Assembly: GCA_963751575.1 (NCBI GenBank)
Contig: CAVVUX010000002.1
Location: 367,984-431,983 of the forward strand
From: an uncultured Chloroflexia bacterium
GTDB taxonomy: Bacteria; Chloroflexota; Anaerolineae; Anaerolineales; UBA11858
Reading direction: 5' to 3'
DNA: 64,000 nucleotides
The position numbers were made by a program, and so were the translations under genes. How positions within the stretch are numbered: position 1 is the first letter of the stretch; every line of letters starts with the position of its first letter. The notes beneath the pieces are model-generated. The model was given only the letters and a program-made list of their open reading frames with translations, searched no databases and was not told the DNA's origin. Shown piece after piece: positions 11,522-44,612 of the stretch.

Positions 11522-11546
11522 TTATCAAGTATACAGAAGAATTTTT

Positions 11547-25552: not shown

Positions 25553-25666
25553 CAACACAGGCGAATAGATTCCATTTTGGAAATCTATCAGGATCAGGAA
25601 CAAATTTGGAGAGATAGTTTTGATGCCCGATCGTTAGTTCAGTAAAGATTATTGAGGACTGAAACC

Positions 25667-25843
25667 ATGGTTAATAAATTAAGGAAAAACTGGCTTTTGA
25701 TTTTAGTAGTGATCTTGTTTGCAATCTACATGGGTGTGTATATTTTTCAGACCAGTTTTGTTATAGATGGAACGCGCTATTTTGTGCTGTTCGATGACGC
25801 GATGATTTCGATGCGATTTGCCAAGAATTTTGCTAAAGGATGA
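25667..25843 (+). pseudogene. truncated 5' remnant of a paralog of the membrane-protein gene at 27078
   Basis: The ~58-aa fragment [51 protein letters not shown] aligns almost residue-for-residue with the N-terminus of ORF 27078 ([51 protein letters not shown]). Similarity is lost at ~25855. Confidence 0.7.
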
Positions 25844-26755
25844 GGCTTATGAACAATAAAAAAATTACTGAACCTATCTATTGGGATTTTACAAACTATA
25901 TGCTCAAAGAAGCAATGGATGCTATGGATCACAGAGCAGACAATGAATTCAAAAGAATTTCTAGAGGGGAATCCTTAGAGATTGTCCACGGACAAGCTGT
26001 GAGGGATTATATATATTTTGTAGAATTTAATTGAAGGAGCTATATTTTTTTTAAACAAAATCGGATATCCGGTTACAGGATCAGCAATTGACATAGGATC
26101 AGGTACAGGAATTGGTGCATCGATCCTTTCTAACTATAAAGGTTTGAATAAGATTTTCGCCTTAGAATTTTCAGAAAGATTTGTTAAAAATATAATGCCA
26201 CTTGTGTTTGAGGAATTCTCTTCCCATCCGGGAAAAATTCAGAGAGTAGTAGGTGATTTCAACAATCTTAATGTCGAAGATGGTTCCATCGATTTAATAC
26301 TTGATATCGATTCATTGCATCATGCAGAGGATTTAGAAATTACTCTGAAGGAATGTAATCGAGCATTAAAACCAGGTGGAGTTCTAATTGCAATTGATAG
26401 GGCATGGGACGATTCTTACACAGATCTGCAACTGCAGGATATGCTGGATAAAGAACTGAATGATAATTTAAAGCGAAAATATAATATCCCCGAAAATCAA
26501 AGTTACACCCGCCGAGATTTTGGAGAACATGAATATACTATGAAACAATGGGAAAATGCTTTTTTAAATCAGGGGTTTGAAACTAACATTTTTTCACAGA
26601 AACATCCACCAGGTCTTATTAGTATCTTCGATAATATTCCAACATTTAAATTTTCAATTTGGATTTCTTCACTTATGTATAATTTAGGAATGAGAAGACA
26701 TATTATTTATGGATTTAACAAAACCAGAAGATTGTTTGTTTGTATTAAAACTTAA
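25840..26755 (+). pseudogene. class I SAM-dependent methyltransferase, one frame disruption, in AT-rich cassette
   Basis: ORF 25840-26034 (frame 1) is followed in frame 2 from ~26024 by NLIEGAIFFLNKIGYPVTGSAIDIGSGTGIGASILS (SAM motif I). That runs into track ORF 26144-26755 (LKPGGVLIAIDR, motif-IV-like). Confidence 0.6.
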
Positions 26756-27077
26756 TTTAACTTTAGAATCTTTCTTGGTGTGTTTATTAACAATTTATGT
26801 AGAGAGTTTCCTTTACTAAATATGCTGATTATCCAATGATGGAATAATCTTCTATAAAAAAGATTATCAATATTGGAATGGCAAATTTATTTATACACAA
26901 AAGATATTGACCACAGATGAGATAAAAGTCATTAATTAACGAAATAATTTTTCCTAATCATTTGAATTACATTAGGCGCCACATAATCGAGAATGGAAAT
27001 ATGAAAACTCTTGTCTCAAGAAGAAGAAAATTACCTGCTCTGACCAGGAAAAATATTACTTTATAAAAGGAAAAACC

Positions 27078-28705
27078 ATGGTGGACATCATAAAGAAAAA
27101 TTGGCTATTTATAATATTATTGTCGATTATAGCTGTTTATATGGGTGTGTACATTTTCCAATCCAGTTTTATTTCAGATGGCACTCGCTATTTTGTGCTG
27201 TTTGACGACGCTATGATCTCAATGCGTTTCGCTAAGAACTTTGCCGAGGGACTTGGGTTAGTGTGGAATCCTGGAGAAACGCCAATAGAAGGTTATACCA
27301 ACCCTCTCTGGGTAGTTTTTATGTCTTTTTTCCATCTTTTCCCGATTCCGTGCCTCAAAAATCAGCTTATTTATTCAAATCAGTGGCGCGTTGTTTTTGC
27401 TGGCTAATCTCGTGTTTGTAAAAAAGATCACTGAGGAAATTTCAGAAGACTTCTCTTACTCCCTATCTGGCAGTGATCCTCACGGGTTTATATATCCCGC
27501 TGAATGATTGGGGCCTACAGGGAATGGAAGTCAGTGGGCTTGTCTTATTGGTTTCAGCGGTAAGTTTTTTGGCAATCCGATCACTTAAGAATGAGATGTT
27601 TTCTAAATGGATCTACATTTTATTGTTTGTAGGTACGTTAGTTCGGATGGATATCGTAGTACCCTACCTGGTTTTCTGGGGATTTCTGGTGATCTTTGAT
27701 GCAAAAAACAGGAAACAGCATCTTATTTGGGGTTTTGGACTGCTTGGCATTCTCCCTGATTGGTCAAACCCTGTTTCGTCATTTTTACTATGGAGATTTG
27801 CTGCCAAATACCTACTACCTGAAGATGACAGGGATATCCCTCGTTCTGCGAGTAAAAAGAGGGCTTTTTGTTCTTTATCATTTTATTCGGGATTTTAATT
27901 GGGTCCTGTTCATCCTGCCCTTTTTGGTTATCTTTATTCCGATTAAACTTATCAAAACTTCTGCTCGCATTGGTCTTTTCTGCCCAGATTGCGTACAGTG
28001 TTTACGTTGGTGGTGATGCATGGGAGCATATCGGGGGAGCCAATCGTTATCTATCAATAGCGATCCCCTTATTCTTTATCCTGTTTGCCTCTGGATGGGA
28101 ACAGATCAGGAATTCCCTGTTCGCAGCTGTGAAGGATCAAAAATCCATCATAAAAATCACGGGAAATATTGGGTTTGGTCTGGTTGTTTTGCTAAGTCTG
28201 CTGAACTTTAATTTCATGAAGGAGAACCAAAATAATAACAAGATAATATCGCTCCAAAATAATATCAAGAGAATGTTTTTATTGTATGAACCCCATTTTA
28301 TAGAAGGCAACAAATGGAATTTGGAGATCGTTCAGGCGGTTAATAAGGTCACAACACCCGAATGCTGTAATTGCTGTCACAGGAGCAGGATCAATTCCAT
28401 ATTTTACTGAGCGCCATGCCTATGATGTTTTGGGAAAGATCGATTCCTATATTGCCCATTTACCAAACCATATACCCACTGGTGGTTTAGTGAATATTCG
28501 TCCTGGGCATATGAAATGGGATTATGAATATACTTTTGGACAGTTAAGGCCGGATATGATCCTTGGTATTTGGGAAAACCGGGAAGAAGCAGAACCGATC
28601 CTCGCTGAATACTATACAACAATTAGTGTGAACGGAATGAATTATCTTGTTCTCAAGGGCTCTCCAGAAATACTCTGGGATCAGGTTGACCAGGAGGTTT
28701 ATTGA
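27078..28705 (+). pseudogene. polytopic GT-C-like membrane protein, at least five frame disruptions
   Basis: There are successive +1 shifts. Frame 0 reads ..[47 protein letters not shown]. Frame 1 from ~27345 reads [32 protein letters not shown]. Frame 2 from ~27450 reads SLTPYLAVILTGLYIPLNDWGLQGMEV... Frame 0 from ~27750 reads FSLIGQTLFRHFYYGDLLPNTYYLKMTG... Frame 1 from ~27930 reads ..AQIAYSVYVGGDAWEHIGGANRYLSIAIPLFF... Frame 2 from ~28370 reads ..GKIDSYIAHLPNHIPTGG..GHMKWDYEY.., with the stop at 28703-28705. Confidence 0.6.
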
Positions 28706-28848: not shown

Positions 28849-30594
<1,746 letters not shown>

Positions 30595-30666: not shown

Positions 30667-31489
30667 ATGAACGGAATTCAAGAGTTATTTGACCTGACGG
30701 GAAGGGTTGCAATTGTAACTGGTGGAGCGGGGTTTCTTGGACAGCAGTTCTCAGAAGCATTAACTGAAGCTGGTGCCTCGATCGTTGTGGCTGATATCAA
30801 TCAAAAAGACGCTAGTCATTTTGCTGCAAAACTGGAAGACAAAGGTGGCAAAGCCATGGGTATTTCCGTGGATGTCACGGACCCTTACTCAGTTCAGAGC
30901 TTAATGGAAGAAACCCTGAAGAAATTTGGCAGATTGGATATTTTGGTTAATTCTGCCGCGCTGGACCCCAAATTTGAGGGAATTTCTTCTGAAAAACATG
31001 CCACGTCATTTGAAGAATTTTCACTTGATTCCTGGAAAGAAGCCCTTGATGTGAACTTGACTGGTATGTTCCTGATCTGTCAGGCAGGCGGCAAAGATCA
31101 TGAAGATCTCAGGCAAAGGATCGATCATCAATATATGTTCGACCTACGGCATAACTGGACCAGATCAGCGGTTATATGAGTCCCTTGGTGAACCCAGGCT
31201 CTACAAACCTGTCTACTACACAGTCAGCAAAGCTGGTGTATTGGGTCTAACAAAATATATCGCGACCTATTATGAAGGCACAGAGATCCGCTGTAATGCA
31301 CTCACACCGGGGGGAGTGGAACGAGAGCATGCTCAGGCATTTAAGGAAGCCTACAGCAGCAGAACAGTGCTGGGCAGGATGGCATATCCCCATGAGATGA
31401 AAGGAGCGGTTGTATTCCTCGCTTCTGAAGCATCGAGCTATATGACAGGATCTAATCTGGTTGTAGATGGAGGATGGACCGCATGGTAG
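30667..31489 (+). pseudogene. short-chain dehydrogenase/reductase, one frame disruption
   Basis: TGGAGFLGQ Rossmann motif, NSAA, then a +1 shift at ~31095-31100 (..CQAGGK | IMKISGKGSIINICS). The catalytic YTVSKAGVLGLTK (YxxxK) lies in the second frame. Confidence 0.7.
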
Positions 31490-32266
31490 AAGTACTGACA
31501 TTTATCCCGGCCCGGGGAGGATCAAAGGGTATTCCCCGGAAAAATATCAAGAATCTGGCTGGACATCCCTTGATTGCCTACAGCATAGCTGCATCCTTAG
31601 AGGCAGAATTGGTTAAGAGAACTATTGTCACCACTGATGATCCTGAAATAGCCGAGATTGCCCGGAAGTATGGGGCAGAAGTGCCTTTTCTACGGCCTGA
31701 AGAACTGGCGCAGGATGATACCCGGGATCTGCCGGTTTTTCAGCATGCATTGACCTGGCTAAAAGAGCAGGAGGGTTATCAGCCAGACCTGGTTGTCCAG
31801 CTCCGGCCAACCAGTCCCTTCCGTCCACCAGGCTTGATTGATGAAGCGATCAATATACTGTTGGATAACCCCGAGGCAACCTCTGTTCGAGGAGTTGTTC
31901 CTTCAAATCAGAATCCTTATAAAATGTGGCAGATCCTGGAAAATGGTGCAATGCGGCCAATTCTGGCATCTGGATCAATCAGAACCTTATAATATGCCCC
32001 GCCAGGAATTGCCGCAGACTTATTGGCAGACCGGTCACATTGATGTGATCAGGACTGAGACAATTCTCAATGGATCAATGACTGGCGATAATGTCTATGC
32101 TTGTCTGATTGACCCGATTTACTCGATAGATCTGGATAGTGCCCTGGATTGGGAGCAAGCAGAATCCCGGATCCCGGATTTGGGAACGAAAATCACGTTT
32201 CCTGGCTCCACAAAGATTGGATCCCTAAAGATATATCTCTGGTCGTTCTGGATTTTGATGGTGTGA
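31474..32266 (+). pseudogene. neuA: N-acylneuraminate (nonulosonate) cytidylyltransferase, one frame disruption
   Basis: FIPARGGSKGIPRKNIKNLAGHPLIAYSI is the CTP_transf_3 N-terminal signature, followed by LRPTSPFR. A +1 shift at ~31960 precedes ..EPYNMPRQELPQTYWQTGHIDVI. The 3' end overlaps, and may be fused to, the HAD phosphatase ORF. Confidence 0.75.
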
Positions 32267-32715
32267 TAACTGATGATCGGGTCTATGTCAATCAGCATGG
32301 CGAAGAATCTGTGGCTGCCCACCGGGGAGATGGCATGGGTATAGCCATGCTAAAGAAGACTGGTGTTGAAGTGATTATTTTGTCCACGGAAAAGAATCCA
32401 GGTCGTTCAGGCCCGGGCGATAAGTTGGGTGTTGAAGCTTTTCAGGGCATTGATGACAAAAAAAGCTACCTGGAATCTATTCTTACAGAGAAGAAAAGTC
32501 CGGGCAGCCAGGTTGCCTATGTGGGTAATGATTTGAATGATTTGGCTTGTTTTTCGCTGGTTGGTTGGGCTGTGGCTGTTGCTGATGCCCATCCTGACCT
32601 GCTTAATCAAGCTCAGCTCATTTTAAAAAAGAAAGGTGGTCATGGGGCAGTCCGGGAATTATGTGATTTGATTATTAATGATAAGAAACAATCTGAAACA
32701 AGAATTAAGGAGTGA
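32149..32715 (+). CDS. HAD-superfamily phosphatase, KdsC / nonulosonate-9-phosphate phosphatase type (start uncertain; possibly fused to neuA)
   Basis: LVVLDFDGVITDD is HAD motif I, and YVGNDLNDL is motif IV (GDxxND-like). The size and layout resemble KdsC. Confidence 0.7.
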   Translation: MGASRIPDPGFGNENHVSWLHKDWIPKDISLVVLDFDGVITDDRVYVNQHGEESVAAHRGDGMGIAMLKKTGVEVIILSTEKNPGRSGPGDKLGVEAFQGIDDKKSYLESILTEKKSPGSQVAYVGNDLNDLACFSLVGWAVAVADAHPDLLNQAQLILKKKGGHGAVRELCDLIINDKKQSETRIKE

Positions 32716-32717
32716 AT

Positions 32718-33622
32718 ATGACCAGAGAAGTAATGCTGGGTAATCGCCCGGTGGGAGATGGCCATCCAGTTTATATTATTGCTGAGATTGGGATTAACCA
32801 TAATGGTGATCTGGATGTAGCCAAACAACTGATTGATGCCGCAGTGGAAGCTGGTTGTGATGCAGTAAAATTCCAAAAGCGAACACCAGAATTATGTGTT
32901 CCGGAGGACCAGAGGGATAAAATGCGCCATACTCCCTGGGGATATATCAGCTATATGGAATATCGTGAAAAAGTGGAATTTGATCACGACCAGTTCAGTG
33001 AAATTGTAGATTATTGTGCCAAAAATCAAATAGATTGGCAGGCCTCCGCCTGGGACGAACTATCGGTGGATTTCCTGGAACAATTTAATCCTATTGCTCA
33101 TAAGGTAGCTTCAGCATCCCTGACAGATGCAGACCTGTTAAAGAAGATGCGCGATCAGGGAAGGCCTATCATTCTCTCGACGGGTATGTCCGAGATGGAG
33201 CAGATCGAAGCTGCTGTCGAAATGTTGGAACGGATGATTTGATCCTGGCCCACTGCACCAGCTCATACCCCTGTCCTCCAGGGGAATTGAACTTGAGAAT
33301 GATTCAAACATTGCGGAATATATATCCCTGTCCGATTGGATATTCAGGGCATGAAGTTGGATTACCAACAACCGTTGCAGCTGTGACTCTTGGTGCCTCG
33401 TTGATTGAACGCCATATTACACTCGATAGGGCTATGTGGGGTTCTGATCAGGCTGCATCTGTTGAACCGGCAGGCCTGAGACGACTGGTGAAATATATCC
33501 GCGTAGTGGAGGAAGCTCTTGGTGATGGAGTCAAAACTGTTTATGAGAGTGAAAAAACCAGTCTTGATAAATTGCGCCGAGTGGATTCTTTACCGATTAG
33601 GGGCAGGATCAAGAAGAATTAG
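32718..33622 (+). pseudogene. neuB: N-acetylneuraminate/nonulosonate synthase (NeuB family), one frame disruption
   Basis: PVYIIAEIGINHNGDLDVAKQLIDAAVEAGCDAVKFQ is the NeuB N-terminal block. A -1 shift at ~33215-33225 (..EAAVE | NVGTDDLILAHCTSSYPCPP) leads to GYSGHEVG and LIERHITLDR. Confidence 0.8.
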
Positions 33623-33662: not shown

Positions 33663-35212
33663 ATGAGACCCCTCTTGAAAAAACTTAATAGGGGAATACA
33701 AAAACTGCGCTTATTCTACCTGGTTGGTCAGTCTAAACAGGAAAATAGCCGCAGAAGTAGATCCGGATCGATCTGAAAAACCGGTCGTGTTTTTTAACGC
33801 CTCAGCCAGGTTGGAAGGATTGAATCAAAACGGGGCCTTTAATCTGATCTCAAGCTGGGGTATCCAATTAGCTGGCAGACAGGTTTATCATTTTTCTTGC
33901 CGATCCGGAATGAGCCAGTGTGTTATGGGAGCAGGGCTGGGTGATCCCATGGATCCTCCTCCCTGTCAGGGATGCATTCAATACACCAAACTCTTTACTG
34001 GCGCTGCCAAAAGTTTCTGGTTTGATTATTCAGAAGATCCCCAATTACGGGAAATCTTCAAGGTAAATCTGTATCTGATCTGCATAAAGATTGAATATAA
34101 AGGACGTCCCCTTGGTGAGCTTGTTACGGCAAGCGCTCGCTGGATCCTTCGCAGGCATCATTTAGAGGAAGACCAGGTCACTCGTTATATATTGTGTGAA
34201 TTCATTCTTTCAGCGAACTCTATTGCTGACGCTTTTTCTAGGTTTTTGATTGAAGTAACACCTGAAGTAATTGTCTTGTTTAACGGATTAATGTTTCCAG
34301 AGGCAGTAGTCAGTTGGGTCGCGAAAACAGAAGCAATCAGAGTAATCACCTATGAAGTGAATTTGCAGCCTTTCTCGGCTTTTTTTACGTCCTAACCAGG
34401 CAACCAGCTATCCAATGGATATTCCCCCGGATTTTAGACTCTCTGATCCACAAAATCAGCTTCTGGACCATTATCTGGAAAAACGGTTTCAAGGGGGATT
34501 TTAAAATGGCTGGAATTAAATTCTGGCCAGCTATGGACCAATTACCAGCTGATTTCTTAGCTCATGCAGACCAATTCGACCAGCTGGTTCCTGTCTTTAC
34601 TAATGTGATCTTTGATACCAGTCAGGCCTTTGCCAATGTGATCTTTTCGAGATATGTTCGATTGGCTTGACCATGTGATCGGGACAGCAGGCAGATATCC
34701 GGATACTCTTTTTGTGATCAGGGCCCATCCGGATGAGATGAGAAAAGGTAAAAGCAGCCAGGAAAGTGTCCTTTCCTGGGCAGCAGGTATTGATCTTGCC
34801 GAGCTTGCCAAATGTCATGATTATTGGACCGAATGAGACATTAAGTTCTTATGAGCTTATCCAACGGCTCAAGTTTGTCATGGTTTATAACTCTTCGATC
34901 GGTCTAGAAGCTTCTTTGTTAGGCCGTCCCGTCCTCTGTGCGGGAAAGGCCCGTTATACTCAATATCCAACCGTTTTCTTTCCGGATTCGTTGGCGCAGT
35001 ATGAAGATTTGTTGGATAACTTCCTCAGTTCGCCTTCGATCTTCCTTCCTGAAGATTTTAAAGAAAACGCACGCAAGTTCTTATTTTATCAACTGTACAG
35101 AACATCGCTTCCTTTTGGTGAATTTCTAACAGAACATACAACTCCTGGATATGTCCAGATTAAGAAATATTCCTTTGGAAAAACTAAAACCCGGAAGTTC
35201 AAAGGTCATTGA
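33663..35212 (+). pseudogene. capsule-biosynthesis (KpsS/KpsC, Capsule_synth-like) glycosyltransferase, four to five frame disruptions
   Basis: Segments occupy frames 0>1>2>0>1>2, with shifts at ~33720, ~34390, the G5 run 34493-34497, ~34650 and ~34800. Family-like blocks are VPVFTNVIFDTSQAF, LFVIRAHPDE and VMVYNSSIGLEASLLGRPVLCAGKARY. Confidence 0.55.
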
Positions 35213-35270
35213 CACAGTTGTAAATGGTATCCTTGCAGGTGAGAGAATTTATTTTGGAGACCGACGAATT

Positions 35271-36137
35271 ATGAAACTCTATTATCGGATCAAGCGCAAA
35301 CTCAAGTTGTTGAGGTTGAAATTCAGGAGATTTCAAGCAGCCAGGCGCTGGGGCAGAGATGCCCTGGCACAAGCTCCTCCTGTGCTTGGATTTGCAATTC
35401 CTAAAGCGGGCTCTCATCTGATAATCCAGATCTTATATGGGTTAACCAGGATTGGCCCATTTGTTAAACCAGGCTTGCCGCCGGTAAATCGATTTGAGGA
35501 TAATACAAAACAGATTGAAGCAACCATTCTCGATGAAATTACTGGGATGCGTTCTGGAGAGATCCGGTACGGATATTTGCACTCGAAAGAGCCCTACCTC
35601 TCTGCAATCACCGCTCCTGGTAGGGCATCAATTTTTGTCTACCGAGATCCCCGAGACCAATTGGTCTCCCTTGTTTTTTATGCAAAAGATATGCAGCTTG
35701 ATCATCACATGCATAAATATTTCGATCAAGGATTATCGACCATGGAAGAACGCTTAAATGTTGTGATAGAAGGTAGTGATCTTCCTGAACTGCTGATGGT
35801 GAACGTCCGGGAGAGATATGAGGATTATCTGGGCTGGTTTGAAGAGGACGATGTTCTCTGCCTGAAATTTGAGGATCTTATTCTTGATCAGGAAAACACC
35901 CTGGGGAACATTCTTGATTATATTGAACAATTTGGAGTTTCTCTTTCAGTATCCAGACCTGAGGCAATCAAGGTATTAATGGACGCTATACAACCAAAAG
36001 ACTCAGGTACTTTTCGTAAAGGCGAGCCTGGCAGTTGGAAAGATCACTTTACTGAGGAAAATAAACGACGATTCAAAGCGGTTGCAGGAGACTTGTTATC
36101 CAGATTGGGATACGAGGAAAATGACCAGGATTGGTGA
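35271..36137 (+). CDS. sulfotransferase
   Basis: GFAIPKAGSHLI is 5'-PSB-like and FVYRDPRDQLVS is 3'-PB-like. The ORF is open from 35151, but ATG 35271 (MKLYYRIKRKLK) is the likely start. Confidence 0.7.
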   Translation: MKLYYRIKRKLKLLRLKFRRFQAARRWGRDALAQAPPVLGFAIPKAGSHLIIQILYGLTRIGPFVKPGLPPVNRFEDNTKQIEATILDEITGMRSGEIRYGYLHSKEPYLSAITAPGRASIFVYRDPRDQLVSLVFYAKDMQLDHHMHKYFDQGLSTMEERLNVVIEGSDLPELLMVNVRERYEDYLGWFEEDDVLCLKFEDLILDQENTLGNILDYIEQFGVSLSVSRPEAIKVLMDAIQPKDSGTFRKGEPGSWKDHFTEENKRRFKAVAGDLLSRLGYEENDQDW

Positions 36138-36155
36138 ACTTAAGCTGAGTGAATT

Positions 36156-37124
36156 ATGAATACTTCTAAACCTCTCTGTTCAATTGTGATCCGGGCTTTT
36201 AATGAAGAAAAGCACATTGGAAAGCTGCTTGCAGGTATCCAACTGCAGACCTATCCGGCAGTTGAGATAATCTTGGTAGATTCTGGTTCGAGAGACAACA
36301 CGCTGAAAATAGCCAGTAAGTATCCCGTTAAAATAGTTCCAATTGCTTCTTCTGAGTTTACGTTTGGGCGATCTCTTAATCGCGGTATTGCTGCCGCAGC
36401 TGGTGATCTGATTGTCATCATCAGTGCCCATTGTTATCCGGTTTATCCAGATTGGTTGGAAAAAATGCTTGACCCATTTGAGGATGATCTGATTGCCGTC
36501 AGTTATGGAAAGCAGCGGGGTGGTGAAAGCAACCATTTCTCTGAGCATCAATTTTTCAGAACCTATTTTCCCGATATCAGCCAACCCGATCAGGGTCAGC
36601 CATATACCCACAATGCCAATGCTGCAATTCGCAGATCGATTTGGGAGCAGCATCACTACGATGAAGGCATAACAGGACTGGAAGATCTGGCTTGGAGTAG
36701 TTGGGCGAAGGAGGAGGGTTATAAAATCGCCTACGTGGCCGAAGCCGAGATTATTCATATTCACGATGAAACTTACGGTCAGGTTCAGAACCGCTATCAA
36801 AGGGAAGCCATTGCTATGAAGCAGATCCTGCCCGAGAGCAAATTTTCTTGGCGAAACATGATCAGTATGCTGCTGAGAAAGGTCGCCAGGGATTTTTCTC
36901 AATCAAAGAGGGAGGGGAGGTTTTTTAAAGAGTTCTGGGGAATTATTCGCTTTCGTTTTATGCAATATCTGGGTACCTGGCAAGGATACCGCTATTCTGG
37001 CAAGATCGATCAGAATCTTCACACAAAGTTTTACTATCCTCCTGGTATCTTGACTGAAAAAATACCTATTTCTCGGCCTGTAGAACCCATTCAGTATCCA
37101 CAAGATGCTGATGAGGAGAACTGA
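36156..37124 (+). CDS. glycosyltransferase family 2
   Basis: CSIVIRAFNEEKHIGKLL...ILVDSGSRDNT plus a DxD-like region. The ORF is an intact 322 aa. Confidence 0.75.
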   Translation: MNTSKPLCSIVIRAFNEEKHIGKLLAGIQLQTYPAVEIILVDSGSRDNTLKIASKYPVKIVPIASSEFTFGRSLNRGIAAAAGDLIVIISAHCYPVYPDWLEKMLDPFEDDLIAVSYGKQRGGESNHFSEHQFFRTYFPDISQPDQGQPYTHNANAAIRRSIWEQHHYDEGITGLEDLAWSSWAKEEGYKIAYVAEAEIIHIHDETYGQVQNRYQREAIAMKQILPESKFSWRNMISMLLRKVARDFSQSKREGRFFKEFWGIIRFRFMQYLGTWQGYRYSGKIDQNLHTKFYYPPGILTEKIPISRPVEPIQYPQDADEEN

Positions 37125-37129
37125 TATTT

Positions 37130-37798
37130 ATGACAAAATTAGCAGCCCTTGTTCCCATGAAACATAATTCCCAACGCGTTCCAGAAAAGAATTATCGGGA
37201 TCTAAGCGGAAAACCATTATTCCATCATATTTTGTTGACTTTATTATCCGTTCCGGAAATTGATCTGATTTGTGTTGACACTGATAGCATAGTGATAAAA
37301 CAAGGCATATTGGAACACTTTCCAGCTGTCACTGTAATTGACCGCCCGCTGGACTTGAGGGCTGATACCATCCCTATGAACCGGATTATCGAACATGATA
37401 TGTCAGTGATCCAGGCTGATTTATATCTGCAAACTCACAGTACCAATCCATTGTTAAAGGCCGAGACTATATCCAGGTCCATCAGGTTGTATCATGATCT
37501 AAAAGATCAATCTGACTCTTTATTCTCGGTTACTCGTTTGCAAAAACGGCTTTACAGCAGGGCAGGTAAGGCATTAAACCATGACCCTTCAGAATTGGTC
37601 CAAACCCAGGATTTACCACCTTTGTACGAAGAAAATTCATGCATCTACCTTTTTTCTGAGGCTGGAATGAAAAAATCTGGCCATAGGATCGGCAGCAATC
37701 CTTTGATGTTTGAAATTGACCCTTCTGAAGCCTGGGATATAGATACACCGCTGGATTTTAAGATTGTCCAATGTTTGATGAATCAGAAAGGTAGGTGA
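37130..37798 (+). CDS. acylneuraminate cytidylyltransferase-family (CTP_transf_3) nucleotidyltransferase, second copy
   Basis: LAALVPMKHNSQRVPEKNYRDLSGKPLFHHIL matches the N-terminal CTP_transf_3 pattern. The ORF is an intact 222 aa. Confidence 0.7.
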   Translation: MTKLAALVPMKHNSQRVPEKNYRDLSGKPLFHHILLTLLSVPEIDLICVDTDSIVIKQGILEHFPAVTVIDRPLDLRADTIPMNRIIEHDMSVIQADLYLQTHSTNPLLKAETISRSIRLYHDLKDQSDSLFSVTRLQKRLYSRAGKALNHDPSELVQTQDLPPLYEENSCIYLFSEAGMKKSGHRIGSNPLMFEIDPSEAWDIDTPLDFKIVQCLMNQKGR

Positions 37799-37801
37799 AT
37801 T

Positions 37802-38770
37802 ATGCCGATAGTTTTGTTTTCAGCGCCCTACATGATTCCATTTCTTGACAGGTTTCAACCTGTTCTGGCCAGATTTGGGGTAGAGTTGATCGTCCCCGAG
37901 GTTGAAGAGCGACTTGAAGAGGAACAGATTCTGGAATTTGCAGGAAAATTTGATGGGGTGATTTGTGGAGATGACCGGTTTTCCCGCCAGGTTATAGAGG
38001 CCTGCCTGCCAAGATTGAAGGTGATCTCCAAATGGGGTACGGGGATCGATTCGATCGATAAAGAGGCCTGTCAGGAGTTAGGAGTTGTTCTCGGTAATAC
38101 ACCAAATGCCTTTACAATTCCTGTTGCAGATTCGATTCTGGGTTATATGCTCAGCTTCGCCCGCCAGCTTCCCCAAATGGATCGAGCCATGAAAGAAGGA
38201 AACTGGAAAAAGATTCCGGGAAAGTCTTTGAGTGAATGTATCCTTGGCGTCATAGGTATCGGCAATATTGGTAGTGCAGTCGTTACCCGGGCCCATGCTT
38301 TTAATATGAAAATTCTTGGTACTGATATTCGCCAGATCGATTCGGATTTTGTCAAAAAATATTCCTTGGAAATGGTCAGTTTGAAGGAGTTGCTGGAAAA
38401 ATCAGATTTCATCAGCATCAACTGCGATTTGAATCCATCCAGCCATCACATCATTGATAAAACTGCTCTTTCGATTATCAAACCTGGAGCAATCCTGATC
38501 AACACTGCCCGGGGTCCATTAGTGGATGAGAAAGCCTTAATAGAGGCTTTGCAATCTGGGCGATTGGCTGGAGCAGCCCTGGATGTTTATGAGTTTGAAC
38601 CTTTGCGAGAGGACAATCGGCTGAGGACATTTGCCAACGTGTTGTTAGCGCCTCATAACTCCAATTCAAGTCCGGGTGCCTGGGAGAAGGTTCACTGGAA
38701 TACAATCAAGAATTTGTTGGATGGTTTGGATATACGTTACCAGATCAATGAAAAGGGTGAAATCTCATGA
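37802..38770 (+). CDS. D-isomer-specific 2-hydroxyacid dehydrogenase family protein
   Basis: GVIGIGNIGSAV is the NAD-binding motif. LINTARGPLVDEKAL and APHNSN match the catalytic R/E/H pattern of the family. Confidence 0.8.
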   Translation: MPIVLFSAPYMIPFLDRFQPVLARFGVELIVPEVEERLEEEQILEFAGKFDGVICGDDRFSRQVIEACLPRLKVISKWGTGIDSIDKEACQELGVVLGNTPNAFTIPVADSILGYMLSFARQLPQMDRAMKEGNWKKIPGKSLSECILGVIGIGNIGSAVVTRAHAFNMKILGTDIRQIDSDFVKKYSLEMVSLKELLEKSDFISINCDLNPSSHHIIDKTALSIIKPGAILINTARGPLVDEKALIEALQSGRLAGAALDVYEFEPLREDNRLRTFANVLLAPHNSNSSPGAWEKVHWNTIKNLLDGLDIRYQINEKGEIS

Positions 38771-39525
38771 AAAATAAAAGTGTCGTGATTACAGGCGCGG
38801 CTGGCGGAATAGGTCAAGCATCGGTCAAAGTATTCATTAAAGATGACTGGTTTGTTTTTGGTATAGATCGATCATCTTATCCGGGTAAGTTTCCAGATTC
38901 CGGTTTATTTATTAAAGCTGATGTCGCCGAGGAAGAAGATTGGAATGAAATTCATTCTAAGATCTCCAAACTCACAAACAATATTGATGGATTGATTAAC
39001 AATGCTGCTATTCAGATTACTAAACCGCTGGTAGAAACATCAGTTGAAGAGTGGGACAAAGTATTGAACGCAAACTTGAGATCAGTATTTCTCAGTGTGA
39101 AAATGCTCTATCCATTATTGAAATTGGGTAGAGGAGGCGCAATAGTCAATGTTTCATCGGTCCATGCAGTAGCAACATCGAAAGATATCGCAGCTTATGC
39201 TGCTTCAAAGGGCGGCATGCTGGCCCTGACCAGGGCCCTGGCTGTTGAATTAGCGGAAGACAATATCAGGGTCAATGCGGTTCTGCCGGGAGCAGTCGAT
39301 ACCGGAATGCTCAGGGCTGGTTTAAACAGGGATCATGCAGGCGGAGGTTCCGCCGAGGAACGCCTGGAAAATTTAGCCCGCAGAACGGTCAGCGGGAAGA
39401 TCGGAACACCGGAAGAGATTGCCCGGGCAATCCTTTTTCTGACTGATAATGATAGGTCGTCCTTTATAACCGGCCAGCCATTGATCATTGATGGTGGTGC
39501 CACCGCAAGATTGAGCACAGAATAA
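38767..39525 (+). CDS. short-chain dehydrogenase/reductase
   Basis: TGAAGGIGQ, NNAA, YAASKGGMLALTR (YxxxK) and IIDGG. The start overlaps the upstream stop (ATGA). Confidence 0.8.
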   Translation: MKNKSVVITGAAGGIGQASVKVFIKDDWFVFGIDRSSYPGKFPDSGLFIKADVAEEEDWNEIHSKISKLTNNIDGLINNAAIQITKPLVETSVEEWDKVLNANLRSVFLSVKMLYPLLKLGRGGAIVNVSSVHAVATSKDIAAYAASKGGMLALTRALAVELAEDNIRVNAVLPGAVDTGMLRAGLNRDHAGGGSAEERLENLARRTVSGKIGTPEEIARAILFLTDNDRSSFITGQPLIIDGGATARLSTE

Positions 39526-39529
39526 GTCT

Positions 39530-40382
39530 ATGACTTCTTTTAAGCAATCTCTCCGGGATATGCTCCCACCTGAACTTTACCAGTCTCTCCAGAATGGCAG
39601 AGATGCCATTGTTCGTCTGGCTGACATTCCAGGTGTATATCTTCATCCCTGGAAATTGGATTCCAATCGCAGGATCATCAAATATCAAAACAGGTATTCT
39701 GGACAACGCTGTTTTGTGATCGGCAATGGTCCAAGTTTGAACAAGATGGACCTATCTTACCTGAAGAATGAAATCACCTTTGGTATGAACAGGGTTTATC
39801 TTGCATTTAATGAGTGGAAATTCCAAACAAGTTTTTTGGTGTCAATAAACGATCTGGTGATTGAACAGAGCCGGGAGGAATTACGTGAATCTGACCATGC
39901 CCAAATTCTTTTCATGGCGGTCACGAGAGCTGCTGTACCCGGAACGGCCAACCGGATGAGCATACTCATTTTTTGCATACACATCCTATACCGGACCAAA
40001 ATTTTCTGATCACCTGCGGGCACGTTTTTGGGAGGGAGCTACAGTGACTTATATCTGTCTCCAGCTGGCCTATTGTATGGGTTTCCAGGAAGTTTATTTG
40101 ATCGGCGTGGATCATAATTTTGATACAAAAGGAAAAGCCAATCAGACAATTACATCAAAAGGAAATGACCCCAATCATTTTAGTCCTGATTATTTTGGGA
40201 AAGGTTTCCGCTGGCAGCTGCCGGACCTGGAGACCTCAGAAAGAGCGTATCGCCTGGCAGATCAAAAATATTTGCAAAATGGTCGGCAAATTTTTGATGC
40301 TACGCTTGGTGGAAAATTATCAGTCTTCCCAAAGGTAGATTATAAAGGACTATTCAGCGGAGATCGGAGGGGCATCATATAA
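39530..40382 (+). pseudogene. CstII (GT42)/Maf (DUF115)-like putative nonulosonic-acid transferase, frame shift plus in-frame TGA
   Basis: CFVIGNGPSLNKMDLSYLKNEITFGMNRVYLAF parallels the GNGPSL block of CstII/Maf proteins, and TVTYICLQLAYCMGFQEVYLIGVDHNF parallels the second conserved block. The frame moves 2>0 between 39861 and 39897, and there is an in-frame TGA at 39957-39959. Confidence 0.55.
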
Positions 40383-40384: not shown

Positions 40385-41824
40385 ATGGTAATGAAGAAAT
40401 CAATCTTAGCTCCCACACGATTCTGGTATATAGTCCTCCTGGCAGTGGTCCTGGTCTGCGGCCTGGTGACCAGACTCTACGATCTGACCGATCCCCCCTG
40501 GATTTTGCTTCAACGCGCCAGCTCAGGTCAGCTTTAATTGCTCGAGGTATGTACTATCCCAAATTGGATGACGCCCCGGATTGGCAGCAGGAGATCGCGG
40601 AAAAACAAGGCAGACACAGTATGATCGAACCGACCATATTGGAGTCAATCGTAGCGGGAACGTATTTTCTAGTTGGCGCAGAATATATTTGGATAGCTCG
40701 GATTTACTCATCGATTATTCTGGGTCCTGGGTGGGCTGGCATTGTTTTTTCTTGTTGAAGAATTGGTTTCAACCGATGCTGCGTTTTTTGGGCTCGCCTA
40801 TTATTTATTTGTTCCTTTTGGCATTATCGCCAGCAGGAGTTTTCAACCCGATCCGCTTTTAACGGCTTGATCATTGTTTCCTGGTGGACATTCTTCAAAT
40901 GGTATCGATCATCGACCTGGAAATGGGCTCTGATTGCAGGTCTTTCTTCCGGTGCGGCAATGATCGTAAAGTCAACAGCAGTCTTCTTCCTGTTATTTGC
41001 TTTTGCATTTTTGGTTCTTCAGAAAGATCAATTTCAAGAAATTGATCCGTGACAAGCAGGTCTGGACAATTTTGACCCTTTCTGGGCTTCCAGTCCTGGC
41101 CTATCATATTTATGGTGTTTTTATCGTTGGATCGTTGGGGGAACAATTCCAGGGCCGTTTCTTCCCTCAAATGTTGAGTGACCCTCGTTATTATCTGCAG
41201 TGGAAGAACGCCATTTCATCTGTTTCAGGTCACTATTTGATCCTGATCGCAGCCATCGTGGGTTTGGCCCTGTATTTCCGGAAAGCGAAACTTTGGTATC
41301 TTCTGGGGATAGGATTCGGATATATTCTTTACTGTTTATTCTTTACCTACCATATCACAACCCACTACTATTATCATCTGCCGCTGATTCCATTTGTCGG
41401 CATCCTGTTGGCCGGTTTATATGAATTCATTATCAAATTCTTCCAGCACAAAGTCTTTTCGACGTTAATCCGGGTTGTTTTGGGCTTGATCCTGCTTGCG
41501 GGGGTTAGCGGAGGCTACTATATCCTGCATCAGGAAGATTACAGCAATGTACCGTACTATTACAGCAAGGTTGCCGGTTTTGTTGAGTGGGATGCAAAAA
41601 TAATTACCTTAAGCCAGGATTATGGAAATCGGATAGCTTTTTATGGTTGGATCATTCCCAGGCAGTGGAAGAACATTGGTGACACTGCCTATGACCAACT
41701 CCGCGGCGCTGAATCGGACCCATTCCTGGAAAAATTTGAGGAGTACACGGATGGTTATGATTATTTCCTGATCACACAGCTGAACCAGCTGGAAAAGCAG
41801 GAAGAGTTATTCAACCATCTATAA
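40385..41824 (+). pseudogene. GT-C-like membrane glycosyltransferase (ArnT/PMT_2-like), four frame disruptions
   Basis: ATG 40385 opens MVMKKSILAPTRFWYIVLLAVVLVCGLVTRLYDLTDPP. A -1 shift at the C6 run 40493-40498 gives LDFASTRQLRSALIARGMYY... A +1 shift at ~40715 gives WVLGGLALFFLVEELVSTDAAFFGLAYYLFVPFGIIASRSFQPDPLLTA. A -1 shift at ~40865 gives IIVSWWTFFKWYRSSTWKWALIAGLSSGAAMIVKS... A +1 shift at ~41020 reaches the end at 41824. Confidence 0.6.
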
Positions 41825-41898
41825 TAATACCTTTATCGTTCATGTCGAAGGTGGAGGTTATATTATCTATGATCTCAACCAGAGAAAATGACTAAATT

Positions 41899-42803
41899 AT
41901 GAGCTGGCAGCCGTTAGTTTCCATTGTGACACCCTCCTATAACCAGGTAAATTATCTTGGAAGTACTATTAAATCAGTCCTGGAGCAGGATTATCCAAAG
42001 ATTGAATATGGAGTTGTGGATGGTGGCTCAGATGATGGCAGTATTAATGTTATCAAGAAGTATGAGAAACAATTAAGTTGGTGGGTCTCTGAACCTGATC
42101 AAGGCCAAAGCCATGCGATTAATAAAGGCATTAACCGCAGCCATGGTGAAGTGGTTGCGCTGGTTGAATTCCGATGATATCTATCTTCCGAACGCGGTAT
42201 CTCAGGCAATTGATTGCATGGAACGATATCAAGTGGACCTGGTTTTTGGAAATGCGATTATTATCGATGAAACTGGAAATCCTCTGGGTGATTTGAGGTT
42301 TGAGGATTGGGGGTTGGAGGATTTTTTGCGTTTCAGGGTTATTTGCCAGCCTGCGGTTTTTATGAAACGGCATGTCTGGGACGAAGTATCAGGTTTGGAT
42401 AATGATTTTCATTATATGCTCGATCATCAGCTCTGGATCAAGATTTCCCACTTGTTCTCCGTGAAATTCATACCTTCCTTTTGGGCAGCGTCGAGATATC
42501 ATAAACAGGCAAAAAATGTTGCCCAGGCAGCGGGATTCTCAGAGGATATTCTCGAGTTGCTGGATTGGATCAAGAAAGACCAGGCGCTTAGTAAATTTTA
42601 TGATCAAGATCAGGATCATATTAGAGGTGGTGCCTATCGGTTGAGCGGTCGGTATCTGTTGGATGGAGACTTTCCGTTCAAGGCCCTGATTGATTATTGC
42701 CGTGCCATCAGGTATTGGCCAGTCCTATGCATTAAAACATTGGCGCAGGATTTTGTTTTCCCTGATCAGTCTGATCACTCCCCTTAAAATTAGATCAGTT
42801 TAG
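41899..42803 (+). pseudogene. glycosyltransferase family 2, one to two frame disruptions
   Basis: [42 protein letters not shown], then a +1 shift at ~42157-42162 (GEVVA | WLNSDDIYL). A possible second +1 shift at ~42720 gives the C-terminus SYALKHWRRILFSLISLITPLKIRSV, with the stop at 42801-42803. Confidence 0.7.
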
Positions 42804-42886
42804 CAAGGTGCCCCTCAAATCGACCCCTGAGGATTGGGGAAATTTATCCAAGCTGGCCGGGAATTAATCTTGATCGAGGACCTCCC

Positions 42887-43835
42887 ATGAGTAGATACTC
42901 GTGATCTGACTCCGATCCTGATCACTGGTGCCCACCGATCCGGAACAACCTGGGTTGGTAAAGTGATCGCGCAGGATCCTTCCGTTGCTTATATAGGTGA
43001 ACCGCTTCATCTTAATCATTCCCTTGGTGTTCTATCCCAACCGGTTGAGTGCCTGGTACCAATATATATCTGACGAAAATGGAGAACAATTCTATAACGC
43101 ATACCAGAATACAATCAGGCACAGGTACCAGCTGAAGAACGAAATCTTGAATATCAAAAATATTAATTCTGCAGGAAAATTGGTGCGAGATCAGATTTCC
43201 TTTCTGTCAAATCGGATATCAAATCGGAGAGCTTTGCTTAAGGATCCGTTTGCAGTGCTGTCAGTCCCCTGGTTTCTTAAACAATTGGATGCTAAAGTTG
43301 TGATCATGATCAGACATCCGTTATCATTCATTAGCAGCCTTCAGCGCTTGGAATGGCCGTTTGATTTTGATAATATCCTCCAGCAACCATTATTAATGCG
43401 TGATTATTTTGAGCCGTTTCGGCAGGAGATGCTGCAGATTAATCAAAAAAAAGAGGATATCATTGGTCAGGGCATCTTATTATGGAGAATGATCTACTCA
43501 GTTGTAGATCGATTTCAACAACAGGATCTAAATATGATGATCGTCAGGCATGAGGATATATCTCGGACCCCGACAGGATTATTTTCTGAGATCTGTGATT
43601 ATTTGAAACTGGAATTCTCTGAGAATATCGAAGTAGCGATCCTGCGTTCCACTCACGATACAAAACCCAACCGAGGTTTCAGATCAAAACGAACATGCTG
43701 TTTTATTAGACAGTCTGAAAAATCTATCGCAACTGGAAAAAAAGGCTGACTGAAGATGAGGTCACTAGGATTATTTCCGGCAGCCAGGATATTGCCGATA
43801 TTTACTACCCGCGAGAGGAATGGAAAGAATGGTAG
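42887..43835 (+). pseudogene. sulfotransferase (paralog of 51488-52410), about four frame disruptions
   Basis: The ATG at 42887 is followed by shifts at ~42900, ~43050, ~43665 and the A7 run 43737-43743. Segments are LTPILITGAHRSGTTWVGK, WYQYISDENGEQF...KVVIMIRHPLSFISSLQRLEWPF, ..NPTEVSDQNEHAVLLDSLKNLS and WKKRLTEDEVTRIISGSQDIADIYYPREEWKEW (stop 43833-43835). It aligns along its whole length with the 51488 protein. Confidence 0.65.
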
Positions 43836-44612
43836 AGCAACCTTTGGTTTCCATCGTGACTCCATCCTATAATCAGGCTGAATTTCTACCCTGAAACAAT
43901 CAATTCTGTTCTTAATCAAGATTATCCGCGGATAGAATATGTTATTGTGGATGGTGGATCAACAGATGGAAGTGTGGGATCATCAAAGAATACCAGGACA
44001 GAATTTCCTGGTGGGTGTCGGAAAAAGACCAGGGCCAGACAGATGCGATTAACAAAGGTTTCCAAAAAACGACAGGGCAGATCTATGCCTGGTTAAACTC
44101 TGATGATTTGCTCAAACCCGGGGCAGTTTCAGAAGCTGTCAATTTCTTACTCAGAAATCCGGAAATAGGACTGGTTTATGGTGATCTCCACTACATCAAT
44201 GGTAAAGGCAAATATATCGGCAATTTTAATGCCAGGCAGACTGACCTGCAAAAATTGCGGAGGGGCTACGTCCATATTCCTCAACCGGCAGCATTTTGGC
44301 GGGCTGAGATCTGGAATCAAGTGGGACCATTAGATCCCAGCTTATTTTTTGCGATGGATTATGATCTCTGGATCAAAATCGCCACTGTGACACAAATTCA
44401 CTATCATAAAGGGTCTTATTGGGCTGATTTCCGGATCCATGGTGGATCAAAAACGATTAGCAGCTGACGAACAATGCTGGGATGATATGCTCAAGATCCA
44501 CCGCCGTGATGGGGGCAGCTGGTTGTCGATCCTTGTTGTTAAATACTGGCTTAGAAAGCTGGCAGGTCCGATCTGGCGCTGGGTCAAACTGCTAAAATAT
44601 AAATCTTCTTAA
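43829..44612 (+). pseudogene. glycosyltransferase family 2 (paralog of 41899-42803), three frame disruptions
   Basis: [20 protein letters not shown], then a shift at ~43888 to ETINSVLNQDYPRIEYVIVDGGSTDGSV. A shift at ~43975 gives IIKEYQDRISWWVSEKDQGQTDAINKGFQKTTGQIYAWLNSDD... A shift at ~44460 gives AADEQCWDDMLKIHRRDGG...KLLKYKSS (stop 44610-44612). Confidence 0.65.

Follow-up and report, generated by a model that had tools for sequence, protein, structure and literature searches.

The window, a stretch of 64,000 nucleotides, carries a cell-envelope glycan cluster that is common to hundreds of Anaerolineae genomes. An intact locus, L001, is syntenic with the cluster, whose genes are as follows:

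28864–30594, + strand: bifunctional ATP sulfurylase/APS kinase (PAPSS; PAPS supply), intact 576-aa ORF, 95% identity to the L001 gene
30667–31489, + strand: SDR1, short-chain dehydrogenase, first gene of module 1, with a single frameshift; matched to the L001 short-chain dehydrogenase in two tblastn segments
31474–32715, + strand: first cytidylyltransferase, joined in one protein with a HAD phosphatase of the KdsC/YrbI type, frameshifted; L001 orthologue of 412 aa with CTP_transf_3 and Hydrolase_3
32712–33622, + strand: nonulosonic acid synthase of the NeuB family, a short 301-aa version with a single frameshift; PF03102 in L001
33663–35274, + strand: ORF A, 534-aa modified GT-B enzyme resembling KpsC/WbbB and candidate transferase for a CMP-(non)ulosonic acid; frame-corrected, the window having about 10 indels that shift its frame
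35271–36137, + strand: Sulfotransfer_1 sulfotransferase (PF00685 at 1e-13), 84% identity to the L001 gene, 4-nt overlap with ORF A
36156–37124, + strand: GT2a, family 2 glycosyltransferase, intact (PF00535 at 1.6e-25), conserved position between both modules
37130–37798, + strand: CTP2, second cytidylyltransferase, 222 aa, intact (PF02348 at 1e-25)
37802–38770, + strand: D-2-hydroxyacid dehydrogenase (2HADH), phosphoglycerate dehydrogenase/glyoxylate reductase-like, intact (PF02826 at 7e-59)
38767–39525, + strand: SDR2, short-chain dehydrogenase, glucose-1- or aldose dehydrogenase-like, intact (PF13561 at 2e-51)
39530–40382, + strand: ORF B, 282 aa, a DUF115/MptE-like domain that stands alone, candidate transferase for a CMP-sugar; frame-corrected
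40385–41891, + strand: PMT_2 (GT-C type) membrane glycosyltransferase, frameshifted; PF13231 in L001, tblastn segments
41869–44612, + strand: GT2b, second sulfotransferase and GT2c, all frameshifted; conserved downstream part of the cluster by L001 comparison and tblastn

ORF A and ORF B are real genes, relatives of acidic-sugar transferases, each located beside its own sugar-activating module. Both are split over several frames in the window. The intact 534-aa orthologue of A (P0001/P0002) matched 33663–35271 in seven tblastn segments, and DNA alignment to two intact loci located the same single-base indels, removal of which yields a 534-aa A and a 282-aa B; the extra bases in B lie at 39886, 39943 and 39976–39977. 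The corrected ORF A stops at 35274, not at 35212, and its final ~20 codons overlap the apparent start of the ORF at 35151–36137. The KpsS/KpsC-like and GNGPSL/YLIGVDH blocks quoted in the preliminary description were all found on the + strand: NVIFDTSQ in ORF 34506–34670, VIRAHPDEMRKGK in ORF 34654–34836, VYNSSIGLEASLLGRPVLCAGKARY in ORF 34766–35212, CFVIGNGPSLNK in ORF 39530–40009, and EVYLIGVDHNF in ORF 40044–40382. Its assignment of A to the KpsS/KpsC type, of B to the Maf/DUF115 relatives, and of cytidylyltransferases to positions 31474 and 37130, both real PF02348-type proteins, likewise held.

The corrected ORF B passed the PF01973 MptE-like/DUF115 profile with 45.3 bits against a gathering cutoff of 34.6 (orthologue P0121, 46.6 bits; Bellilinea orthologue, 42.4 bits), the match spanning profile positions 15–169 of 171; homologues along the full length gave E = 4.5e-163. 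The model (pLDDT 88) retrieved Maf 5mu5 as the best fold with the whole protein aligned (287 columns), followed by MptE and GT29 sialyltransferases, and the fold matches also included pyrophosphokinases. The B profile reached CstII (GT42) at E ~4e-4 via the GNGPSL and LGYKEIYLSGID blocks, the latter following the pattern (L/M)G(Y/F)xE(I/V)xLxG(I/V)D; no MptE or Maf sequence was matched in the profile search. By fold, ORF B comes nearest to Maf, and by sequence profile to CstII; it may represent a DUF115 domain in minimal form, corresponding to the Maf catalytic core and related to the GT42/GT29 sialyltransferases. It differs from Maf 5mu5, a 632-aa protein with N- and C-terminal flanking domains, in comprising the central domain only, and no gene for flagellin, the Maf acceptor, was present among the annotated genes of the window.

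The main motifs of ORF B are GNGPSL (65–70), LIGVDH (D193-H194), and H215; G65-N66-G67-P68-S69-L70 is invariant in 66/66 homologues and aligns to CstII residues 8–13. ORF B failed the Pfam CST-I profile PF06002 (13 bits, E = 0.07, cutoff 25). The residue comparison suggested in the preliminary description also turned out negative for B. CstII His188, which we take to be the catalytic base, and Tyr156 and Tyr162, which we take to bind phosphate, are not conserved in the HMMER profile alignment; in this low-confidence part of it they correspond to K223 (a K/E/R column), a variable S/N column, and Lys, respectively. Invariant E167, D193, D212, D231, E236, and D255 are candidates for the Maf catalytic acids (residues 324 and 415 in the M. 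magneticum protein). The invariant H194 and H215 lie near the position aligned to CstII His188.

ORF B directly follows module 2. The nearest solved relatives of CTP2 are NeuA/CMP-Neu5Ac synthetases, with KdsB behind. The D-2-hydroxyacid dehydrogenase is nearest to the phosphoglycerate dehydrogenase 1wwk (1.5e-51), then to glyoxylate and 2-ketogluconate reductases, and SDR2 to the glucose 1-dehydrogenase 3vtz, scoring 183 bits against the NCBIfam glucose 1-dehydrogenase cutoff of 215. No role in ulosonic acid synthesis is known for this dehydrogenase pair. We hypothesize that the three enzymes make a second CMP-activated acid, which ORF B would transfer.

A different function for ORF B, in which it would not be a glycosyltransferase but would phosphorylate or pyrophosphorylate a small molecule like MptE or the thiamin pyrophosphokinases, appears unlikely. 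On such a route, the dehydrogenases would produce a hydroxy-acid or polyol, B would phosphorylate it, CTP2 would form a CDP- or CMP-linked donor, and another enzyme would move the phospho-substituent, as in CDP-glycerol/CDP-ribitol pathways. PF01973 is indeed named for MptE, the orthologues are publicly annotated as ‘MptE-like protein’, the MptE HPPK (8sd5) is the second-best fold with thiamin pyrophosphokinases among the matches, and both the loss of the CstII His and Tyr positions and the resemblance of the dehydrogenases to enzymes acting on small acids and sugars would suit it. However, the alignment to MptE covers only 173–190 columns, fewer than that to the glycosyltransferase Maf, and it is CstII that the B profile finds. 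CTP2 is a member of the CMP-ulosonic acid synthetases and not of the CDP-alcohol families, and in the literature consulted all function-tested DUF115 proteins, the bacterial Maf, are nonulosonic-acid or Kdo transferases (bioRxiv 10.1101/2020.06.03.131540).

The corrected ORF A passed PF05159 Capsule_synth with 27.4 bits against a gathering cutoff of 20 (P0002, 33.6 bits; Bellilinea orthologue, 34.5 bits), in a match that spans only profile positions ~150–267 of 310 and falls in the C-terminal half of A; homologues along the full length gave E = 3e-259. For both A and B, these scores are better than chance would give. AF2 modeling (pLDDT 91) retrieved WbbB with CMP-Kdo (8csb) and KpsC (6mgc, 8fux) as the best PDB folds, with modest TM-scores to KpsC and WbbB (0.41–0.53 on target) and generic GT-B enzymes ranking lower. 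The protein carries TNVIFDTSQ (N313xxxD317), AHPDE (H354-P355), YNSSIGLE (S409-S410), and a Cys4 set. In a profile-to-KpsC alignment (HMMER), N313/D317 paired with Q156/D160 of KpsC, and H354-P355 with its HP motif, which binds and protonates the CMP phosphate. KpsC D160 is the proven nucleophile in the numbering of the KpsC peptide (PMC10148158), and QxxxD and HP are elements conserved across GT99, GT107, and GT140 (PMC10148158; PMC12887879).

D317 was invariant in 64/64 homologues, and H354-P355 were invariant too. Position 313 was Asn in 64/64, giving NxxxD where the retaining Kdo transferases have QxxxD, a motif whose carboxylate-binding Gln is described as absolutely conserved in all three known families (PMC12887879). 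The residue comparison proposed in the preliminary description thus showed the Asp nucleophile and the HP His to be kept but the Gln to be replaced. Invariant E213 and E231 are candidates for the general-base Glu of the N-terminal domain.

ORF A resembles KpsC/KpsS (GT107), WbbB (GT99), and KrkA (GT140) in its weak Capsule_synth match and its modified GT-B fold. Within the C-terminal Rossmann domain, the Asp of an xxxD motif likewise follows the first strand and HP the next one, and the donor is likely a CMP-activated acidic sugar here too. In contrast to these enzymes of Gram-negative capsule/O-antigen loci, with which it shares only 12–18% identity in structural alignments, ORF A is a single 534-aa module of Chloroflexota with four invariant cysteines in the N-terminal half (C79, C86, C101, C104), and its genomic neighbors are NeuB and a NeuA-like::phosphatase fusion, not Kdo genes. 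Its best named profile was the NCBIfam BFO_1060 family NF046086 (45.9 bits, E = 4e-12, residues 321–470 only); as this score is far under the cutoff of 200, ORF A is no member of that family. Transfer of a Pse/Leg derivative was shown genetically for the Tannerella forsythia representatives Tanf_01245/TFUB4_00887 (PMC5420450). Both they and ORF A have the HP motif and lie directly 3' of a nonulosonic acid biosynthesis locus, but the Tannerella proteins are shorter (~445 aa), and the match covers the CMP-binding half only.

Within module 1, SDR1 had the PRK09186 oxidoreductase as its best NCBIfam match, with a score under the cutoff. The first cytidylyltransferase gave a PseF-like match (1e-43, NCBIfam), and the phosphatase part of the fusion passed the YrbI subfamily (126.9 bits against 107); PDB relatives of the fusion are CMP-Neu5Ac synthetases and KdsC/Kdn-9-P phosphatases. 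The synthase matched NeuB_NnaB at 4e-81, under the equivalog cutoff, with 6ncs, SpsE, PseI, and NeuB as PDB relatives. Module 1 probably makes a nine-carbon ulosonic acid, possibly Kdn-like, via a phosphorylated intermediate, followed by CMP activation.

The preliminary description assigned CMP-Kdo to ORF A as the donor. Because a NeuB-type synthase and a NeuA-like::KdsC-type fusion adjoin A, and the annotated genes of the window and of L001 include no KdsA, KdsB, or KdsD, we consider this unlikely; the donor is probably a CMP-nonulosonic acid, possibly Kdn-like. It is very improbable that ORF A is a genuine β-Kdo transferase like KpsS/KpsC, with the NeuB module supplying another enzyme: Capsule_synth membership, the best solved folds, all Kdo transferases, and the kept Asp and HP motif speak for it, but both cytidylyltransferases score far higher against PseF/NeuA than against KdsB, A stands directly 3' of NeuB in most loci, an invariant Asn takes the place of the Gln that binds the donor carboxylate, and the closest of the named profiles describes a family of Pse/Leg transferases. 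Judging from motifs and fold, ORF A would most likely transfer the module 1 sugar with retention, through double displacement as in the KpsC/WbbB enzymes, with Asp317 of the invariant NxxxD as the nucleophile and His354 of the HP motif protonating the CMP phosphate.

A relative of B was present in at least 576 species genomes. Across loci from 80 species genomes, a CTP2, 2-hydroxyacid dehydrogenase, and SDR set was found just upstream of B in 61 of 67 loci, and A lay within 10 kb of B in 42 of 57. Seen from the A side, NeuB was located just upstream, within 2.5 kb, in 44 of 56 loci, and a sulfotransferase was the gene directly 3' of A in 21 of 59. This conserved gene order supports the pairing of one transferase with each cytidylyltransferase module, so that the earlier proposal that A and B act on the CMP-sugars of the two cytidylyltransferases stands in its pairing but hardly in its choice of CMP-Kdo for A. 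The co-occurrence of A and B in one locus, initially described as unusual, is the rule in the Anaerolineae clade. The sulfotransferase that overlaps ORF A, together with the PAPS synthase, whose L001 counterpart has PUA_2, ATP-sulfurylase, and APS_kinase domains, suggests that the product may be sulfated.

The frame disruption of both genes, correctly noted in the preliminary description for this sequence, is most likely a sequencing or assembly artefact. Most of the indels insert a single base and lie outside homopolymers (11 insertions to 4 deletions among ~15 alignment indels in A), they also affect the neighbors SDR1, CTP-HAD, NeuB, PMT_2, GT2b, Sulfo2, and GT2c, frame projection left no in-frame stop in A or B, and dN/dS came to 0.114 in A and 0.090 in B, inside the neighbors' range of 0.04–0.16 and like that of the intact ones. 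Gene decay in bacteria is usually deletion-biased. A ~20-kb block of recent pseudogenes in this strain, including A and B, has little probability: the frameshifts are strongly clustered (25.6–45.7 kb and 50.5–52.4 kb) and absent from PAPSS, GT2a, CTP2, 2HADH, and SDR2, long intact ORFs occupy 3–25 kb and 53–62 kb, and a search found no near-identical independent assembly that could contradict the frames, but at least 10 independent frameshifts in one gene with zero nonsense substitutions are unlike neutral decay.

Together, we regard it as reasonably likely that the window holds an Anaerolineae-type envelope-glycan cluster in which each of two donor-activation modules precedes a cytoplasmic CMP-sugar transferase of its own, the frame disruptions being sequence errors. 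A system-level analogy only may be drawn with the Kdn teichulosonic acids of Actinobacteria: in Streptomyces coelicolor, a monoderm filamentous bacterium, the single cluster SCO4873–SCO4882 specifies an anionic Kdn cell-wall glycopolymer (PMC13011467), and the Anaerolineae cluster could by analogy serve a nonulosonic-acid-centered anionic cell-wall glycopolymer of a monoderm filament. No sulfation is known for the Streptomyces polymer.

The best-supported reading of the locus is that ORF A and ORF B are two CMP-acid-sugar transferases within a conserved envelope-glycan cluster. The span from 7.5 to 53.6 kb of the window forms one large glycan locus, which also encodes an O-antigen-ligase-like protein and GDP-sugar enzymes. 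Its relevant features are as follows.

8517-9839, ORF matching PMT_2 (GT-C type)
10610-12836, ABC-2 exporter pair
28864-30594, + strand, PAPS synthase
33663-35274, + strand, ORF A, KpsC/WbbB-like candidate CMP-sugar transferase
35271-36137, + strand, sulfotransferase (Pfam and orthology)
39530-40382, + strand, ORF B, DUF115 candidate transferase
40385-41891, + strand, ORF matching PMT_2 (GT-C type)
42888-43835, + strand, sulfotransferase (Pfam and orthology)
about 50.5-52.4 kb, sulfotransferase-like ORFs (tblastn similarity only)

In the intact syntenic reference L001, an Anaerolineales metagenome contig, the gene order is PAPS synthase, SDR1, a cytidylyltransferase–phosphatase (CTP_transf_3::HAD) fusion, NeuB, A, Sulfotransfer_1, GT2a, CTP2, 2-Hacid_dh, SDR2, B, PMT_2, GT2b, sulfotransferase and GT2c. 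SDR1, the fusion and NeuB constitute module 1; CTP2, the 2-hydroxyacid dehydrogenase and SDR2 constitute module 2. In the window, the PAPS synthase and several sulfotransferase-like ORFs share the one glycan locus; sulfotransferases vary by lineage, with no match in the Bellilinea cluster, and in the homologous locus L019 a sulfatase-family membrane protein lies between CTP2 and the dehydrogenase.

Relatives of ORF B were scanned in one genome per species and were found in at least 576 genomes. Among the best 80 of these, 79 were titled Anaerolineales, Anaerolineae or other Chloroflexota, including the cultured Bellilinea caldifistulae along with MAGs classified as Pelolinea, Leptolinea, Longilinea and Brevefilum; the remaining contig, from a MAG labelled Nitrosomonadaceae (L011), carries a complete Anaerolineae-type cluster, and its label is probably a binning error. 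Within these best 80, module 2 lay immediately upstream of ORF B in 61 of the 67 loci with enough sequence, while an ORF A relative and NeuB were located no more than 10 kb upstream of ORF B in 42 and 40 of 57 loci, respectively. A second count, started from ORF A relatives in 80 metagenome loci, placed NeuB within 2.5 kb upstream in 44/56 and ORF B within 6 kb downstream in 12/29. Each transferase is tied to its own module, and the co-occurrence and adjacency counts indicate that possession of both is the norm in the class, although the preliminary description had considered the combination unusual. Its proposal that each ORF serves a cytidylyltransferase module agrees with the conserved gene order; the donors themselves we infer.

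Two metagenome loci (L127 and L158) have the ORF B relative right after ORF A, with no CTP2, dehydrogenase or SDR2 detected between them. In addition, two types of NeuB adjoin ORF A (L012-L014, L017, L018, L022, L030, L036, L038 and others), one 61-95% identical to the L001 enzyme and the other only 43-46%, the latter separated from ORF A by roughly 1 kb of additional sequence, a hint that the sugar differs between lineages.

The motif blocks previously noted in ORF A and ORF B were all found on the + strand, scattered over ORF fragments in several frames. For ORF A, a rough concatenation of the fragments at 33663-35212 scored 25.5 bits against Pfam Capsule_synth (cutoff 20), and the frame-corrected protein 27.4 bits. 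A database search returned intact 534-aa homologues (top match E = 3e-259, 81% identity), all of them unnamed or 'hypothetical', those with names being from Anaerolineales/Chloroflexota. With tblastn, an intact homologue aligned to the window as seven segments spanning 33663 to about 35270; with the indels taken out, ORF A encodes 534 aa, and its stop overlaps the beginning of the following gene. The AlphaFold model of an intact orthologue (pLDDT 91) matched WbbB with CMP-beta-Kdo (8csb) and KpsC (6mgc, 8fux, 8fuw, 6mgb, 6mgd) best in the PDB, followed at lower ranks by generic GT-B enzymes such as UDP-GlcNAc 2-epimerases.

At the sequence level, a profile of 64 homologues reached KpsC with E = 0.002, aligning F-T-N313-V-I-F-D317-T-S-Q of ORF A onto V-D-Q156-T-F-N-D160-M-S of KpsC, and R-A-H354-P355-D-E onto the KpsC HP motif. 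All 64 homologues share N313, D317, H354, P355, S409 and S410. D160 of KpsC is the experimentally proven nucleophile (PMC10148158), and QxxxD and HP are common to GT99, GT107 and the new GT140 (PMC12887879). The alignment thus assigns to ORF A the nucleophile and the leaving-group His of retaining ulosonic-acid transferases, from which it differs in having Asn at the position of their donor-carboxylate-binding Gln. The earlier KpsS/KpsC assignment accordingly holds for the Capsule_synth match, the fold, the Asp and the HP motif, but not for the Gln; a retaining mechanism is predicted from motifs and model. The top named profile was NCBIfam 'BFO_1060 family glycosyltransferase' (E = 4e-12, far under the cutoff), a family that includes the Tannerella Pse/Leg-derivative transferases demonstrated by knockout and complementation (PMC5420450).

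In the N-terminal half of ORF A, C79, C86, C101 and C104 (HFSCRSGMSQC...PPPCQGC, window 33897-33974) are likewise invariant in 64/64 homologues, a pattern that suggests a structural metal site; no comparable Cys4 feature was found in the KpsC, WbbB and KrkA literature searched. The exporter pair at 10610-12836 consists of an ABC-2 permease and a 440-aa ATPase whose ABC domain ends near residue 206 and is followed by a long C-terminal extension, resembling O-antigen Wzt proteins, which read the chain-terminal cap. The idea that ORF A is a WbbB-like chain terminator coupled to this transporter is speculation, the pair lying 21 kb upstream of ORF A and outside the conserved core.

For ORF B, the rough concatenation of fragments scored 47.3 bits against Pfam MptE-like/DUF115 (cutoff 34.6), and the frame-corrected 282-aa protein 45.3 bits. 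The AlphaFold model of its orthologue (pLDDT 88) matched the Maf glycosyltransferase 5mu5 best, over the whole protein; behind it came the archaeal MptE HPPK, over about 180 columns, and human GT29 sialyltransferases. The family profile matched CstII (E ~4e-4), with GNGPSL falling on CstII residues 8-13 and MGFxEVxLIGVD on CstII LGYKEIYLSGID; the family keeps GNGPSL, N87, D193-H194, H215 and several acidic residues, E167, D231 and E236 among them, without exception. Of the GT42/DUF115 relationship suggested initially, PF01973, the CstII-like blocks and the Maf fold were recovered, but the CstII catalytic positions were not: His188 falls on a K/E/R column and conservation is also lacking at Tyr156/Tyr162, in a region where the alignment is weak. 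The main rival, that ORF B is a kinase, draws on the MptE fold match and on the public names of its orthologues ('MptE-like diphosphokinase', or 'MptE-like protein' in Bellilinea, whose intact protein is WP_082148913.1). It is less well supported than a transferase. The profile search returned no MptE or Maf sequence, even at E = 10. Nothing useful was found in the literature joining MptE, HPPK and sialyltransferase. Bellilinea orthologues of ORF A, among them WP_061913456.1, are named 'hypothetical protein' or 'UDP-GlcNAc 2-epimerase', and the public names of both families are probably misleading. Compared with Maf, the candidate transferase ORF B is the central domain alone, and no flagellin gene was found among the annotated window genes. 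The sugars that Maf enzymes can transfer include, besides Pse/Leg, Neu5Ac and Kdo (bioRxiv 10.1101/2020.06.03.131540).

The module 1 synthase is a NeuB/PseI-type enzyme. In the fusion, the cytidylyltransferase half is PseF/NeuA-like, and the phosphatase half is a YrbI/KdsC-family member that scores above the subfamily cutoff, with relatives that include Kdn-9-P phosphatases. The phosphatase implies a phosphorylated intermediate, so that a Kdn-type or Neu5Ac-9-P-type route is plausible, short of proof. In module 2, CTP2 is closest to NeuA enzymes, the dehydrogenase to short phosphoglycerate dehydrogenases and then glyoxylate and 2-ketogluconate reductases, and SDR2 to glucose 1-dehydrogenase. 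The Tannerella pathway paper offered no clue to a role for a dehydrogenase. Supporting genes were found neither for a glyceroyl- or hydroxybutyryl-tailoring role of both dehydrogenases nor for a phosphonate-type CMP pathway: PepM is missing, and the module contains no aminotransferase or acyltransferase. We infer a Kdn-like donor for ORF A, as well as the candidate donor of ORF B, both acceptors and sulfation of the product.

Sediments, soils and wastewater granules harbour abundant Anaerolineae, whose cell envelope chemistry has, to our knowledge, hardly been described; in the literature searched, their link with nonulosonic acids was limited to passing mention. The cluster unites two CMP-sugar modules and a pair of transferases with GT-C enzymes and, in many lineages, with sulfotransferases and a PAPS synthase. 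Conserved across hundreds of species, it points to an anionic glycoconjugate as a core part of the envelope. A far-reaching extension, which we regard as unlikely, is that it underlies a class-wide, sulfated, teichulosonic-acid-like anionic envelope polymer with two CMP-activated acidic sugars. ORF A would then represent a new retaining (beta-linking) nonulosonic-acid transferase family set by NxxxD in place of QxxxD, and module 2 a route to a CMP-activated 2-ulosonic acid independent of NeuB/KdsA: an aldonate produced by SDR2 oxidation of an aldose would be oxidized further by the 2-hydroxyacid dehydrogenase, and the resulting 2-keto-aldonate would be activated by CTP2 and transferred by ORF B, as a minimal DUF115 enzyme. 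On the main reading, ORF A would extend the small double-displacement ulosonic-acid transferase group past Kdo and probe whether the Gln-to-Asn change follows donor specificity. Kdn and sulfated glycoconjugates are plentiful in granular-sludge EPS, where their producers have not been identified (PMC10483923), and Actinobacteria produce Kdn-based teichulosonic acids (PMC13011467). Both are analogies, not evidence; by analogy, the cluster may offer candidate genes for the granular-sludge glycoconjugates.

The frame disruption described earlier for ORF A and ORF B is true of this sequence, but is not peculiar to them: breaks also occur in SDR1, the cytidylyltransferase–phosphatase fusion, NeuB, PMT_2, GT2b, the second sulfotransferase and GT2c, while PAPS synthase, GT2a, CTP2, the 2-hydroxyacid dehydrogenase and SDR2 are unbroken. 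DNA comparison with two intact loci, L001 (82% identity) and the homologous L002 (87.5%), put the same indels in the window, mostly single-base insertions away from homopolymers (insertion:deletion 11 to 4 in ORF A). Among the insertions are those at 33730, 34089, 34393, 34491, 34649, 34802 and 35159 in ORF A and at 39886, 39943 and 39976-39977 in ORF B. Projected onto the reference frame, neither ORF contains an in-frame stop, and dN/dS against L001 was 0.114 for ORF A and 0.090 for ORF B (neighbours 0.04 to 0.16). At least 10 frameshifts with zero nonsense substitutions and unchanged purifying selection point to sequence error rather than decay. A search of metagenome contigs for GAAAAACGGTTTN{0,1}AAGGGGGATTTT, a frameshift site with or without the extra base, gave zero matches, and the best contig in a protein-guided scan for a near-identical strain was only 76% identical, leaving no second assembly for an indel check.

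The frameshifting indels are concentrated at about 25.6-45.7 kb and 50.5-52.4 kb, with long, intact ORFs at 3-25 and 53-62 kb; the pattern may stem from local coverage, mixed strains or failed polishing. A 188-nt direct repeat (25662-25849 and 27073-27260, 73% identity) copies the 5' end of a membrane-protein gene and brackets an AT-rich insertion of ~1.2 kb (GC 0.31 at 26-27 kb), which bears a class I methyltransferase ORF (26024-26752) and is missing from L001.
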